Shown in pieces: positions 2,400 through 7,614 of a DNA stretch of 24,000 bases; within the stretch, counting starts at the first letter, position 1, and each line of letters begins with the position of its first letter. Where the stretch lies: NCBI GenBank assembly GCA_048262255.1, contig JBLXFH010000002.1:1014315-1038314 (forward strand), given 5' to 3'. A model generated the notes under the pieces. That model was not told where the DNA came from. It was given only the letters and a program-made list of their open reading frames with translations, and searched no databases. The DNA comes from Rhodospirillales bacterium (lineage in GTDB: Bacteria > Pseudomonadota > Alphaproteobacteria > Rhodospirillales > Casp-alpha2). The translations under genes were made by a program, and so were the position numbers.

Positions 2400-3080
2400 C
2401 TATCCGGTAGCTACAGCTTTCTGGCCAGGAACAATAGCCGGAGCAGCCGGTGATTGCTCGATCGCATCCGCCTCAAGAGCTTGCTGCCCGGCAATTTGTT
2501 CGTCAACAAAATTCGATTTGGCGTCCTCTATAACCACATCGCTTTGACAAGTCTCTGTTACCGACTTGCCTCGCACTTCGTCAGTTGATGCCGGTTCATA
2601 TTCGGCAGGTTGCGCCTCAACCAAATGGGACGCCGCTTCATCAAGTTGGAGGCCACTCACATCCGCCGGCGTTGTTTCTGAGAGGGCAGCGACCACCCGC
2701 GCTGTCAGCAATTGAACCTCGTAATGTAATTTTTTCAACCGATCATTGTGAGAGTTGGCCATACTGGACGGAATGGTCTGGAAAATATTTAAAGGCCCTA
2801 ACTTCATCATCTTGACGTTAACGTGGACAAGGCCCGCAAGCTGCACCAGGACCTCATTTTCGGCCTGGTTGCGCAAGGTCCGCATGAGGTTCATTGAGGG
2901 GACATCGGAGATTTCCTTATTCGCCAACAACGTGATTTCAAAGGTTTTGAGTATCTTGATCGCATCCTTGAAGCGATTGCTGTTGCCGTAGTCGGGTCGG
3001 CTTTCAATATCGGCAACAACCGCTGGAATCCCGTCAAGAATTGTCTCGATACTGCCGAACACCTTTCCGAGCACGCTCAT
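2400..3080 (-). CDS. Hypothetical protein (226 aa from the internal ATG), last gene of a minus-strand operon
   Basis: Long ORF. I prefer the ATG at 3080 (MSVLGKVFG...) because AAGGAA lies 8 nt upstream, rather than the ORF-track start at 3113. It sits 43 nt downstream of the preceding gene. I recognise no family. Confidence 0.6.
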   Translation of the reverse strand: MSVLGKVFGSIETILDGIPAVVADIESRPDYGNSNRFKDAIKILKTFEITLLANKEISDVPSMNLMRTLRNQAENEVLVQLAGLVHVNVKMMKLGPLNIFQTIPSSMANSHNDRLKKLHYEVQLLTARVVAALSETTPADVSGLQLDEAASHLVEAQPAEYEPASTDEVRGKSVTETCQSDVVIEDAKSNFVDEQIAGQQALEADAIEQSPAAPAIVPGQKAVATG

Positions 3081-3123
3081 CTTACCAATTCCTTTTTTCA
3101 ATATGCGTTCCAAATGGTTTGTT

Positions 3124-3828
3124 CTATTTTTTCTCTTTCTCTTCAGCTGCAGCCATTTCCGACTGTGCCGCTTTGGTCAACGCCGTAAGCTGATCTTGAA
3201 TTTCCTGCGCAATGATCGTCTTCAGCGTATCGGTGATCTGCTCAACGATGTCAGTTTCTGCCGGCGCCCCGAGCGATTGTGTTGTGCGACCTGATAATGT
3301 GGCATGGTCTTCGAGAACCTTGAGCGCTGAAATAAGGGCCTCATGTTCGGATGGAACGGCTGTTTGATTAACGGCGTTTGCGCTGGCATTCATTTCACCC
3401 ATGGCGGGGTCTTTATCAGCGCCCGGCTTTTGGTTAAAAACTTTTCGTGTAACATTGGCCAGCGATTGCGTGGCATGCTGTGCGGCGCTCATCTGTTTAT
3501 CGGCTTCTTGGGCGCTGATGGTTTTTCGCGCTTCAGCAAGCTGCTGCATTGCTGCCGCTTTTTGCGCTGATACAGCTTCACTTACCGCCGAGCGCTGTGC
3601 TTCGAAGGCTTTTTCGACAGCTTCGCGTTGAACCAGGGAGGCTTCAAGGATGTTTAACGCGTTTTGAACCGTTGTCGTCCCAACATCTGCCGGCGGGTCC
3701 GAATTTGGGGGTGTCGACATTTGGGGATCTCCGCTGCCCTGTTTAGGTGAACGATCTCCGGCCTCGCTCTCTGCCCCGACCTGATTATCAGGAGTTTTTG
3801 GCTCCTTATCATCTTTGCTTTTCGACAT
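3124..3828 (-). CDS. Hypothetical Ala/Gln/Glu-rich, probably coiled-coil protein with a disordered N-terminus
   Basis: 234-aa ORF on the same strand and in the same cluster as 3938-4279 and 2400-3080. The composition is helical and low-complexity. I recognise no family. Confidence 0.6.
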   Translation of the reverse strand: MSKSKDDKEPKTPDNQVGAESEAGDRSPKQGSGDPQMSTPPNSDPPADVGTTTVQNALNILEASLVQREAVEKAFEAQRSAVSEAVSAQKAAAMQQLAEARKTISAQEADKQMSAAQHATQSLANVTRKVFNQKPGADKDPAMGEMNASANAVNQTAVPSEHEALISALKVLEDHATLSGRTTQSLGAPAETDIVEQITDTLKTIIAQEIQDQLTALTKAAQSEMAAAEEKEKK

Positions 3829-3937: not shown

Positions 3938-4279
3938 TCAAGAGCCTGATTGCGGCTCATCATCCTCCAGGGGCGGTTTTTCGTGGGGAGCGGTTTCTCC
4001 GGCATCGGTGTCCGTCGTCATGGCAGGCTCGGTTGGCCACGTGTCTTCAGCCTTGGCAGGTTTCGGTTCTGACTCGGTCTGTTTTCCGGACTCACTGGAG
4101 ACGCTTTCAGCCTCCGTCGCAGCGCCTCCAACCTCATCCTCTACGCCCTTGGCCTCAGCAGAGGCCATGGATTGAATAAGCTCGGCTTCCTTAGAAACCT
4201 CATCAGCTTCAGATACCGACGGGTTTTCTTCGTCAGAAACAGTGTCTTTATGATCGAAGGTTTCGCCCATATTGCTCAT
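3938..4279 (-). CDS. Small, highly acidic (Asp/Glu/Ser/Thr-rich) hypothetical protein, 113 aa
   Basis: I prefer the start at ATG 4279 (MSNMGETFDH...) because AAGGAGA lies 7 nt upstream. The ORF-track start at 4357 has no RBS. The predicted protein looks intrinsically disordered. Confidence 0.55.
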   Translation of the reverse strand: MSNMGETFDHKDTVSDEENPSVSEADEVSKEAELIQSMASAEAKGVEDEVGGAATEAESVSSESGKQTESEPKPAKAEDTWPTEPAMTTDTDAGETAPHEKPPLEDDEPQSGS

Positions 4280-4444
4280 GATTGCGTCTCCTTTTCGCCA
4301 GCAATTGTTTTGATGCCGACAATTACCTGATACCGCTTTGCCTGAATTGTTCTGCAAAAGAGCTTCGTAGGCGTTCGCACGTCATCGCGATGGCAACCGG
4401 CCACGTATCATCGCAGTCAACCGTCGGCGGAACTTCATGCTTAT

Positions 4445-4469
4445 GACGTACGTGCCCCTGTATCTGTGA
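4445..4469 (-). promoter_or_regulatory. Candidate ECF-sigma promoter on the minus strand (TCACAGA-N14-CGTC)
   Basis: Minus strand reads cttCACAGAtacaggggcacgtaCGTCataa. One mismatch in the -35 element. It faces the 3938-4279 / 3124-3828 / 2400-3080 operon. Confidence 0.45.
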
Positions 4470-4486
4470 AGTGTATCGATAAAATT

Positions 4487-4510
4487 TCACATCTTCGGTC
4501 GTGAAGCGTT
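4487..4510 (+). promoter_or_regulatory. Weak candidate regulon promoter upstream of the DNase II gene (TCACATC-N13-CGTT)
   Basis: aattTCACATCttcggtcgtgaagCGTTagat. Mismatches include the last base of the otherwise invariant CGTC. It ends 46 nt upstream of ATG 4557. Confidence 0.3.
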
Positions 4511-4556: not shown

Positions 4557-5576
4557 ATGACATTGAATGCGATTAATGATTCAAATGACAAAGCTGTTGA
4601 TTGGTGGTTTGCCTATAAACTTCCTCACGCCGCATCTGCACCAAATGATACGTCAGGTGTGTCCGGCACAACCGGGTTTGAATATCTCTATTACGATAGC
4701 CAGGCTCACAGTCCCCTCCAGATATCTCCGCATCGATTGAATCAGCCCGATGGAGCGCTGCATCAAACGCTAGCGCACATTTTCGATACCGCAAAGGATG
4801 CATCGAGGCAAACCGGCTGGATTCTCTATAACGACGAGGCACCCGGCCGCAGAGAAAACAATGAAAGCAAGGGGCACTGCAAGGGGATCCTTAGTTTTGA
4901 CCCACAGGAAGACAGAGGAATTTGGCTCATTCACTCGACGCCCCGCTTTCCGATTGGCGGATCCCCCGATTTTCCGGAGGATGAAAAAATTTACGCTCAG
5001 ACATTCATTTGTTTGACGCTCGAAAACTATGCGACAGCGAATCTGATCGCCCGTCAATTGCTTCATCAACACGACCCGCAAGTTTATGATTTCAGTATTC
5101 CCACATCGATCCCTGATACCGATTTTGTTCGCCAACTGAGTGCCGGTGTACGTGTCCAGCCGCCCACCAAACCCAGCGAGTTGGTCTTTCATACAAAAGG
5201 GCAAAAGACCATACACAGCATTGGCAAGAACCGGCATTGGGCAGAGGACTTCTGGATTGACCTGGTCGGGCCTTATCTCAAGGTCAACCTGAATGTTGAG
5301 ACATGGCGACGCGGTCGTATTCCAAGTACCAGGGATAGCAATGGCGTCGATGATGTTGTCGACGTCACGGGCATTGATTTGTCGGTATTGGGTGCCGACT
5401 ATTCCTGGCCCTATACGAAGGACCATGCCAAATGGGCCGTATCGACCACAGCGGACTGGGTTTGCATTGCCGACATCAACAGACAAGTTTCACAGGAAAA
5501 ACGCGGGGGCGGTTGTGTCTGTTTTAATGAACCCGGCCTGTGGCATGCGTTGTCATTGATTGAGGTGAAACGCTAA
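4557..5576 (+). CDS. Deoxyribonuclease II (DNase II, acid endonuclease; phospholipase-D superfamily HxK nuclease) homologue
   Basis: N-terminal KAVDWWFAYKLP. ILYNDE...GHCKGIL (first HxK). WLIHSTPRFP. C-terminal KDHAKWAV (second HxK). CIADINRQ...EKRGGGCVCF. These match the hallmark blocks of eukaryotic and Burkholderia DNase II in the same order. RBS GGGAGA lies 6 nt upstream. No signal peptide is evident. Confidence 0.88.
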   Translation: MTLNAINDSNDKAVDWWFAYKLPHAASAPNDTSGVSGTTGFEYLYYDSQAHSPLQISPHRLNQPDGALHQTLAHIFDTAKDASRQTGWILYNDEAPGRRENNESKGHCKGILSFDPQEDRGIWLIHSTPRFPIGGSPDFPEDEKIYAQTFICLTLENYATANLIARQLLHQHDPQVYDFSIPTSIPDTDFVRQLSAGVRVQPPTKPSELVFHTKGQKTIHSIGKNRHWAEDFWIDLVGPYLKVNLNVETWRRGRIPSTRDSNGVDDVVDVTGIDLSVLGADYSWPYTKDHAKWAVSTTADWVCIADINRQVSQEKRGGGCVCFNEPGLWHALSLIEVKR

Positions 5577-5622
5577 TCGGAAGATTTCCGCCTGAAGGGC
5601 TTCACGTTCCGGCTCAAACCAT

Positions 5623-5907
5623 TTATCCGCTCTTTGATTTGCCGTTCAAATAATTCAACGGGCCGTTCTTTACCGCCTCTGTGGTCAAATCGATCACTGT
5701 TTTGCGAAGCTTCAGCATCTCCTCTTTAACGTCTGGAGGCTGTGTATTGGATTCCACCAGCGCTGTAATTTCTTTATTGGTGGTTTCGGCAAATTTTTGA
5801 AGCCCCAGGAAAATCGCTTCTTCAACCGCTTTTCTAGTGGTATCCCCGTTGACAAGGCGATCAAACAATTCACTGGGGTCGGGAGTATCGGCAGGTGACA
5901 TATTCAT
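5623..5907 (-). CDS. Hypothetical small helical protein (94 aa)
   Basis: ORF preceded by a candidate regulon promoter (6033-6057, minus strand). I recognise no family. Confidence 0.5.
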   Translation of the reverse strand: MNMSPADTPDPSELFDRLVNGDTTRKAVEEAIFLGLQKFAETTNKEITALVESNTQPPDVKEEMLKLRKTVIDLTTEAVKNGPLNYLNGKSKSG

Positions 5908-6032
5908 CTCCGTTTATGTGGGCTGAGGTTCGCCCTGGTTTATTCGCAGGCCTCACTCACGGGTGTTTCCCGATCAAGGTTGCGTGTAGAGAGCAGGCCC
6001 AGGATCAGGTGTCTATATGACGTTATAGTTAA

Positions 6033-6057
6033 GACGGTTGTTCTTACGGTTTTGGGA
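6033..6057 (-). promoter_or_regulatory. Candidate ECF-sigma promoter on the minus strand (TCCCAAA-N14-CGTC)
   Basis: Minus strand reads cctTCCCAAAaccgtaagaacaacCGTCttaac. The -10 context CCGTCTTA matches P1 and P5. It faces the 94-aa ORF at 5623-5907. Confidence 0.45.
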
Positions 6058-6174
6058 AGGACCTCATCACCGGTGTCATGCAAGAGCTTTGACATGGAGT
6101 ACGGTCGGAAAACGTTTCTGCCTTGAGCGTGAATGAGCCATGTTGATGATTTAGATGATTATGCGATTTCTTTC

Positions 6175-6198
6175 TCACAAATTAGTTGTCACACCGTC
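6175..6198 (+). promoter_or_regulatory. Candidate ECF-sigma promoter P1 (TCACAAA-N13-CGTC)
   Basis: tttcTCACAAAttagttgtcacacCGTCttgtag; the CGTC ends 80 nt upstream of the reb-1 start. Confidence 0.65.
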
Positions 6199-6278
6199 TT
6201 GTAGACGAGCACCGCGTAGTCGTTCTTTACGATGACGCAAAGTTCAACTGAGAAGAGAATCCGCAAGGAGAAACAATC

Positions 6279-6602
6279 ATGGCAATTCCGACTCCCGTGA
6301 ACGGACAGATTACAGACTCCGTCACTCAATCAAACGTCAAGGTTCTGGGCGATGCCCCGGCCATGGCGATGGGGGCGATCTTTCAGTCCCTAGCGCATTC
6401 CACCGGCATTCTTTATGAGAATGCAGTGAGCGCGCAACAGCAACTGGGCATCGCTGCGCAGGCCGCGACGAACCAGGGTGTCATCCAGATCTACAGCATC
6501 GACACCATGTCCGATGCCGTGGCGACATCGAAAATCGCCCAAAGCGATACGCCGAGCACAATGTTGTCATTGCTGACGGCCTTGAAGGCAACGCAAGGAT
6601 AA
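6279..6602 (+). CDS. rebB: R-body protein, RebB 'killing trait' family, paralogue 1 (class 1, 107 aa)
   Basis: N-terminal PVNGQITDSVTQSNVKVLGDAPAMAMG, then HSTGILYEN...QQQLGIAAQAATNQGVIQIYS. This matches my recollection of Caedibacter RebA/RebB. AAGGAG RBS. Own upstream promoter motif. Confidence 0.88.
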   Translation: MAIPTPVNGQITDSVTQSNVKVLGDAPAMAMGAIFQSLAHSTGILYENAVSAQQQLGIAAQAATNQGVIQIYSIDTMSDAVATSKIAQSDTPSTMLSLLTALKATQG

Positions 6603-6671
6603 ATCGCCCGACGGTTTGTGATGAATGGCTTTGTACTGCAAGCCATGACTCCGGCGAAGCCTATAGTTGGA

Positions 6672-6739
6672 ATTCAGGCCCAGTTCCGTTGAGGTCAGTT
6701 TCGTCTCCCAGACAAACTGGCCCAATGGCTGGCCTGAAT
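6672..6739 (+). other. Nested stem-loop in the reb-1/reb-2 spacer
   Basis: Outer stem: ATTCAGGCC (6672-6680) pairs with GGCCTGAAT (6731-6739). Inner stem: GGTCAGTTT (6693-6701) pairs with AAACTGGCC (6714-6722), with one G-U pair that is allowed only on the + strand. The loop is 12 nt. Confidence 0.5.
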
Positions 6740-6844
6740 TATCCATATACCACAGGAAGGCATCGGTCGGAACGAAACCATACGCCCATACTGTCAAATC
6801 CCTGCCAAATCCGATCCCACCGTAGTATAATCAATCATCAACAC

Positions 6845-6868
6845 TCACAAATCAGCAACTCCGCCGTC
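6845..6868 (+). promoter_or_regulatory. Candidate ECF-sigma promoter P2 (TCACAAA-N13-CGTC)
   Basis: acacTCACAAAtcagcaactccgcCGTCaataa; 79 nt upstream of reb-2. Confidence 0.65.
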
Positions 6869-6947
6869 AATAAACTGAGCTGCGCGTCCGGCATTCGGTC
6901 CGGTAACGTGAGTTCGATCGAAATCAGCTTCCTAAAGGAGAATGAGC

Positions 6948-7271
6948 ATGGCAACTCCCACCCCCGTAAATGGACAAATCACGGATTCCGTAACACAGGC
7001 CAATACCGAAGTGTTGGGCAACGCCCCGGCCATGGGCATGGGCGCAATTTATCAGTCGTTGGGACATTCCACCGGAATTCTTTACGAAAACGGCGTGAAT
7101 ACACAGCAGCAACTGGGCATTGCAGCTCAGGCGGCAACCAACCAGGGTGTGATCCAGATTTACAGTGTCAACACCATGGCCGGTGCGACGGCAACATCCA
7201 AAATCGCCCAAAGCGATACGCCGAGCACAATGTTATCATTGCTGACGGCCTTGAAGGCGACGCAAGGATAA
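6948..7271 (+). CDS. rebB: R-body protein, RebB family, paralogue 2 (class 1, 107 aa)
   Basis: Same family motifs. I prefer the second ATG (6948, MATPTPVNG) because of RBS spacing and alignment with paralogue 3. The ORF-track start at 6942 abuts the RBS. Confidence 0.88.
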   Translation: MATPTPVNGQITDSVTQANTEVLGNAPAMGMGAIYQSLGHSTGILYENGVNTQQQLGIAAQAATNQGVIQIYSVNTMAGATATSKIAQSDTPSTMLSLLTALKATQG

Positions 7272-7336
7272 ATCGCTTAATTCCATTGATTGGCTTTGCA
7301 CAGCAAACCATATTTCCGGCGTCGCATTTGGTTTAC

Positions 7337-7407
7337 ATTCAGGTCCAGTCCCGTTGGTGCCGGTTCTGTCATCCGGACGAACCGGCACAATGGCTGGGTT
7401 GATTAAT
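7337..7407 (+). other. Homologous nested stem-loop in the reb-2/reb-3 spacer, with compensatory changes
   Basis: Inner stem: GTGCCGGTTC (7357-7366) pairs with GAACCGGCAC (7379-7388); perfect 10 bp, 12-nt loop. The flanks align with 6672-6739, but the stem bases differ on both arms while pairing is retained. Confidence 0.5.
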
Positions 7408-7509
7408 CCATGCTCTGTAAAACTGAAATCGATCGGCAAATATCAAACACCTGCATAAGTCCGCCCTTGGACAATCCATCTCAAGATAAAAAAAACTGCT
7501 TATCACCAC

Positions 7510-7533
7510 TCACAAATTCGCCAGCCCGCCGTC
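7510..7533 (+). promoter_or_regulatory. Candidate ECF-sigma promoter P3 (TCACAAA-N13-CGTC)
   Basis: ccacTCACAAAttcgccagcccgcCGTCaataa; 81 nt upstream of reb-3. Confidence 0.65.
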
Positions 7534-7614
7534 AATAAGCTGAGCACCGCGCGCCCGGTTTCCGATCCGGTAACGTGAGTTCGATCGAAATCAGCTTCCT
7601 AAAGGAGAATCAAC

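Follow-up and report, generated by a model that had tools for sequence, protein, structure and literature searches.

Described DNase II and R-body systems

The described bacterial enzyme closest to the gene considered here is the DNase II of Burkholderia thailandensis (BthDNase II; 5I3E/5UNB; Varela-Ramirez et al. 2017, PMC5449587). The gene in question lies beside an array of refractile-body (R-body) genes, at positions 4557-5576 of a 24,000-nt stretch of a Rhodospirillales genome (contig JBLXFH010000002.1, positions 1,014,315 to 1,038,314), the whole of which is called the window. BthDNase II cuts plasmid DNA at pH 4-5 in the presence of ethylenediaminetetraacetic acid (EDTA) and is inactive at pH 6-9; it carries no secretion signal and, in the conclusion of its authors, stays inside the cell (PMC5449587). 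The two enzymes share the family and the fold (42-45% identity, template-modelling (TM) score 0.84), both HxK motifs, the W-W-R residues, a length of ~340-350 aa and the lack of a signal peptide. Unlike the Burkholderia gene, which belongs to a seven-gene operon that is not consistently near reb genes, the DNase II gene of the window is situated inside an R-body module and follows a promoter motif of that module.

For the R-bodies of Caedibacter taeniospiralis type 51 (rebA-D, pKAP plasmids), the working model is acid-triggered extension, rupture of the cell and release of a not-yet-identified toxin (PMC3583457). RebB genes are present in both systems, and the first Reb protein of the window (Reb1) is 42% identical to the Caedibacter RebB. 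The window differs in having 12 Reb paralogues as compared to four genes, a dedicated sigma factor of the extracytoplasmic function (ECF)-like type, and a DNase II, which the Caedibacter plasmid lacks; its host is free-living and marine, whereas Caedibacter is an obligate endosymbiont. With Pseudomonas aeruginosa PA14 (rebP1P2, FecI2 sigma factor, RcgA; PMC8322103) the window shares a cluster-encoded sigma factor and conserved hypothetical accessory genes, and with PA14 and the 'Group 2' synteny of Raymann et al. 2013, the context of which comprises HP2.1/HP2.2, a sigma factor and a Crp/cNMP-type regulator, it has the 'kamikaze' release model in common. Unlike these, it has no Crp/Fnr-type regulator, and its sigma factor is long (310 aa) and distantly related. 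The accessory proteins of the Burkholderia Group 2 clusters have no detectable homologues among the window genes, and no nuclease is reported in the literature for the reb clusters of PA14 and Group 2.

The payload or toxin of R-bodies is still listed as not identified (PMC3583457, PMC8322103, PMC7297999). The reb synteny surveys of 2013 and 2026 record only hypothetical proteins and regulators, with no enzyme and no nuclease, and a literature search found no paper mentioning both DNase II and R-bodies. The new element of the present locus, as judged from its genes, is a reb module with an embedded, co-inherited nuclease whose activity in acid is predicted. The factor that R-body-bearing cells release has escaped identification for decades, and what the locus contributes is a reb module that includes a conserved enzyme whose chemistry is known.

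Identity and active site of the DNase II

4557..5576, + strand: DNase II, predicted acid endonuclease of the phospholipase D (PLD) superfamily, 339 aa (Pfam, PDB, AlphaFold2/Foldseek, HxK motifs)

The initial annotation, made from the sequence without database searches, had described this open reading frame (ORF) as an intact DNase II with both HxK motifs and no signal peptide, and all lines of evidence agree with it. The 339-aa ORF matches the Pfam profile DNase_II (PF03265) with an E-value of 2.3e-80 and 270.7 bits (cut-off 23) over residues 8-333, covering positions 4-317 of the 326 in the profile. A phmmer search of the PDB returned BthDNase II (5i3e/5unb) as its sole match (E=2.9e-85, residues 7-333). 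The AlphaFold2 model, for which 22 homologues were used, has a predicted local distance difference test (pLDDT) score of 88.3 and a predicted TM (pTM) score of 0.91; Foldseek places 5i3e_A first for this model (E=2e-33, TM 0.84/0.82), followed by PLD3, PLD4 and PLD.

The HxK motifs, GHCKG (H107/K109) and DHAKW (H290/K292), are invariant across the 22 bacterial homologues, as are W250, W293, R309 and R316. H107/K109 and H290/K292 align with H100/K102 and H279/K281 of BthDNase II, respectively, and W250, W293 and R309 correspond to its support triad W239-W282-R298. No signal peptide is evident in the protein, nor any transmembrane segment, the maximum 15-aa hydropathy within the first 40 aa being 0.13, and an N-terminal extension is likewise lacking from all 22 bacterial homologues in the alignment. 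The enzyme is an ordinary member of a known family. From the family and the intact active site, the window gene is predicted to encode a working, cytoplasmic, metal-independent acid endonuclease. DNase II enzymes are characterised by an acid pH optimum, independence of divalent cations and 3'-phosphate products.

Bacterial homologues had been taken to be uncommon, with Burkholderia as the example. This holds when counted per genome, DNase II being present in at least 259 of 185,579 species-representative genomes, but it is too narrow as to range, as the family is not limited to Burkholderia: a metagenome-scale database holds hundreds of DNase II proteins from many phyla.

Linkage of DNase II to the reb genes in one lineage

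From left to right, the module of the window comprises the accessory operon (-), the DNase II gene (+), the module gene of 94 aa (-), the 12 RebB-family genes (+) and the gene of the ECF-like sigma factor (+). Its principal genes, besides DNase II, are as follows.

3124..3828, - strand: core module gene of the u3124 family, 234 aa (positional homologues; no Pfam match)
5623..5907, - strand: 94-aa module gene, convergent with DNase II (homologues in Reb loci)
6279..12356, + strand: 12 RebB-family genes (Pfam RebB PF11747, E 5.9e-28 to 1.2e-4), starting at 6279, 6942, 7615, 8394, 9034, 9558, 10187, 10480, 10897, 11233, 11601 and 11907
12690..13622, + strand: ECF-like sigma factor, 310 aa (Sigma70_r2, r4_2 and ECF domains; regulon motif at 12623-12646, 23.0 bits)

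An R-body cluster is recognized by several PF11747 genes in one locus, and the window has 12. The first reb gene (reb1) begins at 6279, that is 703 nt past the DNase II stop, in keeping with the 700 bp given in the initial annotation, which left the intervening 94-aa gene unmentioned.

One genome per species was scanned for DNase II (185,579 species), and the best 80 of at least 259 relatives were studied, 65 of them with at least 5 kb downstream of the gene; Reb genes were sought within 10 kb with a hidden Markov model made from the Reb proteins of the window. Reb arrays were found in L001 (Kordiimonas sp.), L005 (an alphaproteobacterial metagenome-assembled genome) and L007 (Kordiimonas marina A6E486), that is in three of the 80 loci, and in each the array is directly downstream of DNase II. 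The genes that the window shares with these loci are those of the module only (u3124 family, DNase II, 94-aa gene, Reb and sigma factor), and the flanks differ. The layout of the window recurs around the two closest protein relatives, P0002 and P0003 (62% identity), and is absent around P0006 and P0008 (51-53% identity).

The six Reb-linked enzymes then known group into a single clade when 87 enzymes are placed in a neighbour-joining tree, and in a second tree ten more database proteins fall inside this clade. The layout predicted from the tree was present in all five of these that were looked up (L173-L177, contigs above 10 kb), each with DNase II (+), a ~90-aa gene (-) and a Reb array (+), together with homologues of the u3124-family and 94-aa genes. 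Locus L087, obtained from a metagenome scan for Reb, has the same layout. Reb linkage is thus found in 12 of the 12 clade members for which the surroundings were readable, all of them Kordiimonas relatives, the identity of their DNase II to that of the window being 45-63%. Homologues of the 94-aa gene adjoin DNase II in all 12 loci, and u3124 homologues occupy the same place in each of the other 11 loci with linked DNase II that extend far enough, and likewise in L107, L102 and L117.

Judged by these trees, the association is of single origin. The data support a functional enzyme that would have been kept under purifying selection as a member of the R-body module since the origin of the lineage. 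Whether DNase II is an accessory member of the module in this one alphaproteobacterial lineage (Kordiimonas and relatives) is a question on which we give the affirmative answer about even weight. The initial interpretation, a candidate delivered toxin, is supported in part. The tie of DNase II to the reb genes is closer than the initial annotation could show, as DNase II is enclosed between two module operons, in a layout found in 12 of 12 loci and behind a motif found in nine of 11; it is no general rule, as described further below.

Promoter motifs and regulation

4445..4469, - strand: divergent ECF-type promoter-like motif TTCACA-N16-CGTC (14.9 bits; precedes the leftward accessory operon)
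4487..4510, + strand: weak ECF-type promoter-like motif TTTCACA-N15-CGTT (position weight matrix, 9.1 bits; 46 nt before the DNase II ATG)
6030..6063 (near 6057), - strand: promoter-like motif of the 94-aa gene (19.3 bits)
6175, 6845, 7510, 8285, 8928, 9493, 10019 and 11145: reb promoter motifs

The regulon pattern T(C/T)ACA-N14-17-CGT(C/T) occurs 13 times in the window as compared to 2.8 +/- 1.7 times in shuffles. Ten of the 13 matches precede eight reb genes, the sigma gene and a methyltransferase gene, and two, pointing away from each other, lie in the 199 nt that separate DNase II from the leftward operon. A two-block weight matrix, built from 26 reb promoters in six loci, assigns 15.4-30.5 bits to its training sites and 9.1 bits to the DNase II site, which ranks 16 of 47,928 positions. 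The initial annotation had noted a weak regulon motif before DNase II, and this copy is real. When the 130 nt upstream of DNase II were aligned from 11 loci, most of the sequence had diverged, and two footprints were retained. The leftward promoter, ACG...GTGAA, is present in all 11 loci, and the rightward one, TTCACA-N15/16-CGT(T/C), is present in nine, 28-51 nt before the DNase II ATG, with scores of 5.6-16.7 bits.

Homologues of the sigma factor were found in 23 Reb loci. Its N-terminal extension of ~140 aa has no domain match, and the homologues in related loci measure ~290 to 480 aa. The regulon motif ahead of its own gene suggests that autoregulation is probable. The CGTT that usually replaces CGTC at the DNase II sites, together with their lower scores, would fit expression of DNase II below that of the structural genes, and DNase II is probably expressed weakly in a sigma-dependent manner.

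Minus-strand sites equivalent to the motif of the 94-aa gene are present in L005, L007, L081 and L083. DNase II and this gene converge, 46 nt apart in the window and with an overlap of 4 nt in L081 and L083. The motif of the 94-aa gene is strong, and no terminator-like hairpin lies between the two genes; read-through in the presence of active sigma factor would be antisense to DNase II.

Proposed role of the nuclease

The arrangement can be interpreted as follows. The ECF-like sigma factor of the module would induce the reb genes, and DNase II less strongly, within the same cells, and the enzyme would build up harmlessly, being inactive at cytoplasmic pH, so that an immunity protein would be unneeded. 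Once the cell has been swallowed and has become acidified, its R-body would extend and burst it; the same fall in pH would activate the nuclease, which would then cut the DNA exposed in the acid compartment. The proposal that an acid-latent nuclease is made with the R-bodies and is activated as the cell acidifies and bursts, which is the simplest mechanism and the most likely role, appears to us evenly poised between right and wrong. Its further specification is a good deal weaker: that the relevant target is the DNA of the predator, as for a toxin, is doubtful, and that it is the nucleoid of the bacterium itself, the cutting of which would aid lysis and release, is a tentative suggestion at best. 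That DNase II is the first identifiable payload toxin of an R-body, forming half of a pH-gated two-part weapon in which the acidification that drives the R-body through the vacuole membrane would also activate the stored nuclease to damage predator DNA, is likewise considered unlikely.

Use of the DNase II fold as an offensive or evasion factor against the DNA of another organism has precedent among animals. Plancitoxin-1 of the crown-of-thorns starfish is a toxin of the DNase II family, and Trichinella spiralis is said to secrete DNase II-like proteins as virulence factors; both cases are eukaryotic, with secreted proteins, and have no relation to R-bodies.

The 94-aa gene was considered as a candidate inhibitor or immunity gene of DNase II and was rejected, as seven Reb loci that lack DNase II (L096, L099, L101, L102, L107, L109 and L117) have a homologue of it and none of the 77 DNase II loci without Reb does. 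The 94-aa protein has no family match, and a homologue search of the database returned only the protein itself. No dedicated immunity gene travelling with DNase II is conserved among the compared loci. The lack of a dedicated antidote fits an enzyme that would be harmless at cytoplasmic pH, and the locus thus suggests why none would be needed, namely latency at neutral pH. As one carrier, Kordiimonas marina A6E486, is cultured, and the existing recombinant R-bodies are harmless alone, the idea is directly testable.

Evidence from outside the clade and alternative explanations

A number of observations weigh against the role proposed above. Within the forward scan, 77 of the 80 best DNase II loci have no Reb within 10 kb, so that co-occurrence holds inside one clade (12 of 12) but fails across lineages. 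The reverse scan, a metagenome search with the Reb alignment that yielded 80 loci of 57-92% identity to Reb1, gave DNase II in a single locus, the closest relative L087; of the 29 metagenomic Reb loci in which the array is flanked by 3 kb or more on either side, none contains DNase II. These 29 include more than 12 with 80-88% identical Reb and a homologous sigma factor. Among 72,556 plasmids, 19 carry Reb, 2 carry DNase II and one carries both; the other 18 Reb plasmids, that of Caedibacter among them, are without DNase II. DNase II is missing from most reb loci and hence cannot be the toxin of R-bodies in general.

Locus L107 is of particular weight in this respect. Its module comprises a Reb array together with the u3124-family, 94-aa and sigma factor genes, and its left-flank housekeeping genes are common with L005 and L007 (78-84% identity), yet it contains neither DNase II nor any remnant of it. 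In the sigma tree L107 is nested within the DNase II-positive clade, which indicates a secondary loss, and this clean loss implies that the module works without DNase II. The promoter site of DNase II is also weak, at 5.6-16.7 bits as compared to 15-30 bits at the reb genes; in L081 and L083, the two closest relatives, the rightward motif is missing and an AT-rich, sigma70-like TTGTAT...TATAAT stands in its place; and the site in the window is also readable as a sigma70-like TTCACA-18-TAGATT (9/12). The specificity of the module sigma factor is putative, and so is the assignment of the motif to it. Placed between two module operons, DNase II may persist partly by hitch-hiking. Acid extension is likewise presumed for the Reb type of the window. 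Lastly, since BthDNase II, the only characterised bacterial DNase II, is inactive at pH 6-9, poor activity would be expected in the neutral cytosol or nucleus of a predator. A strict toxin role is thus opposed by three facts, namely the neutral-pH inactivity of BthDNase II, the absence of the gene from all other Reb clades and the loss in L107.

In the DNA between 5500 and 8800 of L107, the leftward promoter and the 94-aa gene stand ~200 nt apart, with no nuclease remnant between them, and as a close relative of L005 and L007 this locus offers a natural DNase II-less comparison.

Elsewhere, bacterial DNase II belongs to other gene neighbourhoods. In Burkholderia megaplasmids and in B. pseudomallei it heads a conserved seven-gene operon, in which it is followed by a 968-aa (~970) nucleoside triphosphatase-like protein with a weak PNP_UDP match, two ~255-aa hypothetical proteins, a Metallophos protein, a ~335-aa hypothetical protein and a Ferritin-like protein; partners of this operon also adjoin DNase II in Aquimarina, Acidobacteriota and Flavobacteriales loci. 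Another context is PLDc_2 with UDG. Since DNase II is found elsewhere in contexts without Reb, the Reb link is a property of one lineage and not of the family.

The seven-gene operon is the most widespread conserved context of DNase II, occurring in at least three phyla; it lies at 10001-19423 of L170, 12001-21445 of L167 and 7322-16769 of L168, and is also present in L024, L033, L034 and L060. None of its proteins has a PADLOC match. On the B. pyrrocinia plasmid pBPJTT (L167/L169, record 281,000-295,300) ~0.85 kb separates the end of this operon from a reb cluster of Group 2 (hypothetical protein, RebB x3, Crp/Fnr, sigma factor, RebB), and this is the sole plasmid of the 72,556 with both gene types. 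A second, independent origin of the association in Burkholderia was considered and rejected: the adjacency on pBPJTT is a probable coincidence, and the operons of Burkholderia sp. FERM BP-3421 and B. pseudomallei have no Reb nearby. A variable cargo slot in other Reb clades was also considered, and no pattern of swapped hydrolases was seen; their motif-preceded large ORFs have no Pfam domain, and the genes conserved beside them encode kinases, cyclases, response regulators and glycosyltransferases.

A rival explanation is that DNase II is a passenger, inserted once between the two module operons and kept there by linkage, with a function that has nothing to do with R-bodies (for example in scavenging nucleotides, in the response to stress or in the turnover of DNA). 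Most bacterial DNase II genes do reside elsewhere, in the seven-gene operon or with PLDc_2 and UDG; the association with Reb is of single origin; other Reb clades are devoid of the gene; L107 lost it cleanly; and its promoter is weak or missing. A passenger would not, however, be expected to stay whole and to keep every catalytic residue across 12 of 12 lineages, at identities as low as 45%, despite reshuffling outside the module, nor would a positionally conserved sigma-type motif (nine of 11 loci) be expected before an unrelated gene, and the pairing of an acid-activated enzyme with an acid-triggered R-body would need coincidence. The passenger explanation is regarded as a serious rival, possible without being probable. 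Chance adjacency to the reb genes is also the essence of a defence or anti-mobile-element nuclease, for which there is general precedent in that PLD-superfamily nucleases occur in defence systems and R-bodies have historically been linked with defective phages; a transmembrane-containing patatin-like protein is also nearby. Against it, neither DNase II nor its neighbours have a PADLOC match, viral contigs yield one DNase II locus and no Reb array, no methylase or immunity partner is conserved, and an enzyme that needs acid to work would be of no use on the DNA of a cytoplasm at neutral pH. An origin in phages or defence was rejected for the lack of PADLOC matches and the near-absence from viral contigs, and the explanation as a whole is considered highly improbable.

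An alternative that retains the acid-latent nuclease would direct it at the kamikaze cell, whose own nucleoid rather than the DNA of the predator would be destroyed on acidification, with irreversible death or a thinner lysate and efficient release of the R-body and other cell contents as the effect. As this type of enzyme is inactive at pH 6-9, the bacterial chromosome would be its nearest substrate on activation, and the GH25 muramidase of L173 and the Endonuclease_NS plus SLT protein of L081, under or near the same promoters, suggest a lysis toolkit. The GH25 and Endonuclease_NS proteins carry export signals, though, and so are not simply cytoplasmic cargo; the benefit to kin would be indirect; and L107 manages without DNase II. 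We know of no experimental precedent for a self-directed nuclease helper. Such a helper is considered improbable taken alone, and its role about as likely as that of a toxin. The acid-latent nuclease made together with the R-bodies is the reading common to both.

Hydrolases in related loci

GH25 muramidases with lipoprotein signals are encoded in the leftward operons of L173 (4600-5460), L176 (5400-6143) and L177 (7623-8366), and that of L173 has its own motif of 17.6 bits. In L081, a signal-bearing Endonuclease_NS protein and an SLT/PG_binding protein stand behind a motif (4565-6290). A 624-aa eCIS_core (DUF4157) protein is encoded nearby in L175 (916-2790).

Other features of the window

2400..3113, - strand: accessory module gene of the u2400 family, 237 aa (homologues in L175-L177; no Pfam match)
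3938..4357, - strand: small acidic protein, gene 1 of the leftward operon (ORF list and translation; likely true start ATG 4279)

Homology to the u2400 family is also found within ~1100-aa proteins of L102 and L117, the genes of which have a motif in front. The small acidic protein has no Pfam or NCBIfam match and is poorly conserved. Outside the module block, the window contains a 755-aa patatin-like protein (45-2312) and, from 13877 on, ordinary metabolic and transport genes. In the patatin-like phospholipase, the motifs GGGVR, SVSGG and DGG are present and the middle of the protein is a long hydrophobic stretch; its gene is convergent with the leftward module operon, has its upstream region beyond the end of the window, and adjoins no other Reb locus among those examined. 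A regulon-type motif of 12.5 bits (13747-13771) lies 105 nt upstream of a class I S-adenosylmethionine-dependent methyltransferase gene that comes directly after the sigma gene (13877-14665), for which no homologue was seen in the related loci; it may be a regulon member specific to the window or a chance motif match. A recent island was ruled out, as the composition is normal and no tRNA is present; the fraction of G and C in the DNase II gene is 0.505, which is normal for the window.

The ~340-nt spacers that follow reb1 and the next reb gene, at 6603-6941 and 7272-7614, are alike, each with a GGCTTTG-N-CAAGCCA-type hairpin at its start and a promoter at its end, and this likeness suggests a duplication of gene plus spacer. 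With a period above 500, it goes unreported by Tandem Repeats Finder (TRF). Two ORFs over the same region, 6689-7402 (+) and 7591-8052 (-), were considered as accessory genes and rejected as spurious frames over the real reb genes 6942-7271 and 7615-7947, respectively; an automatic caller that prefers long ORFs would miss these two RebB paralogues.

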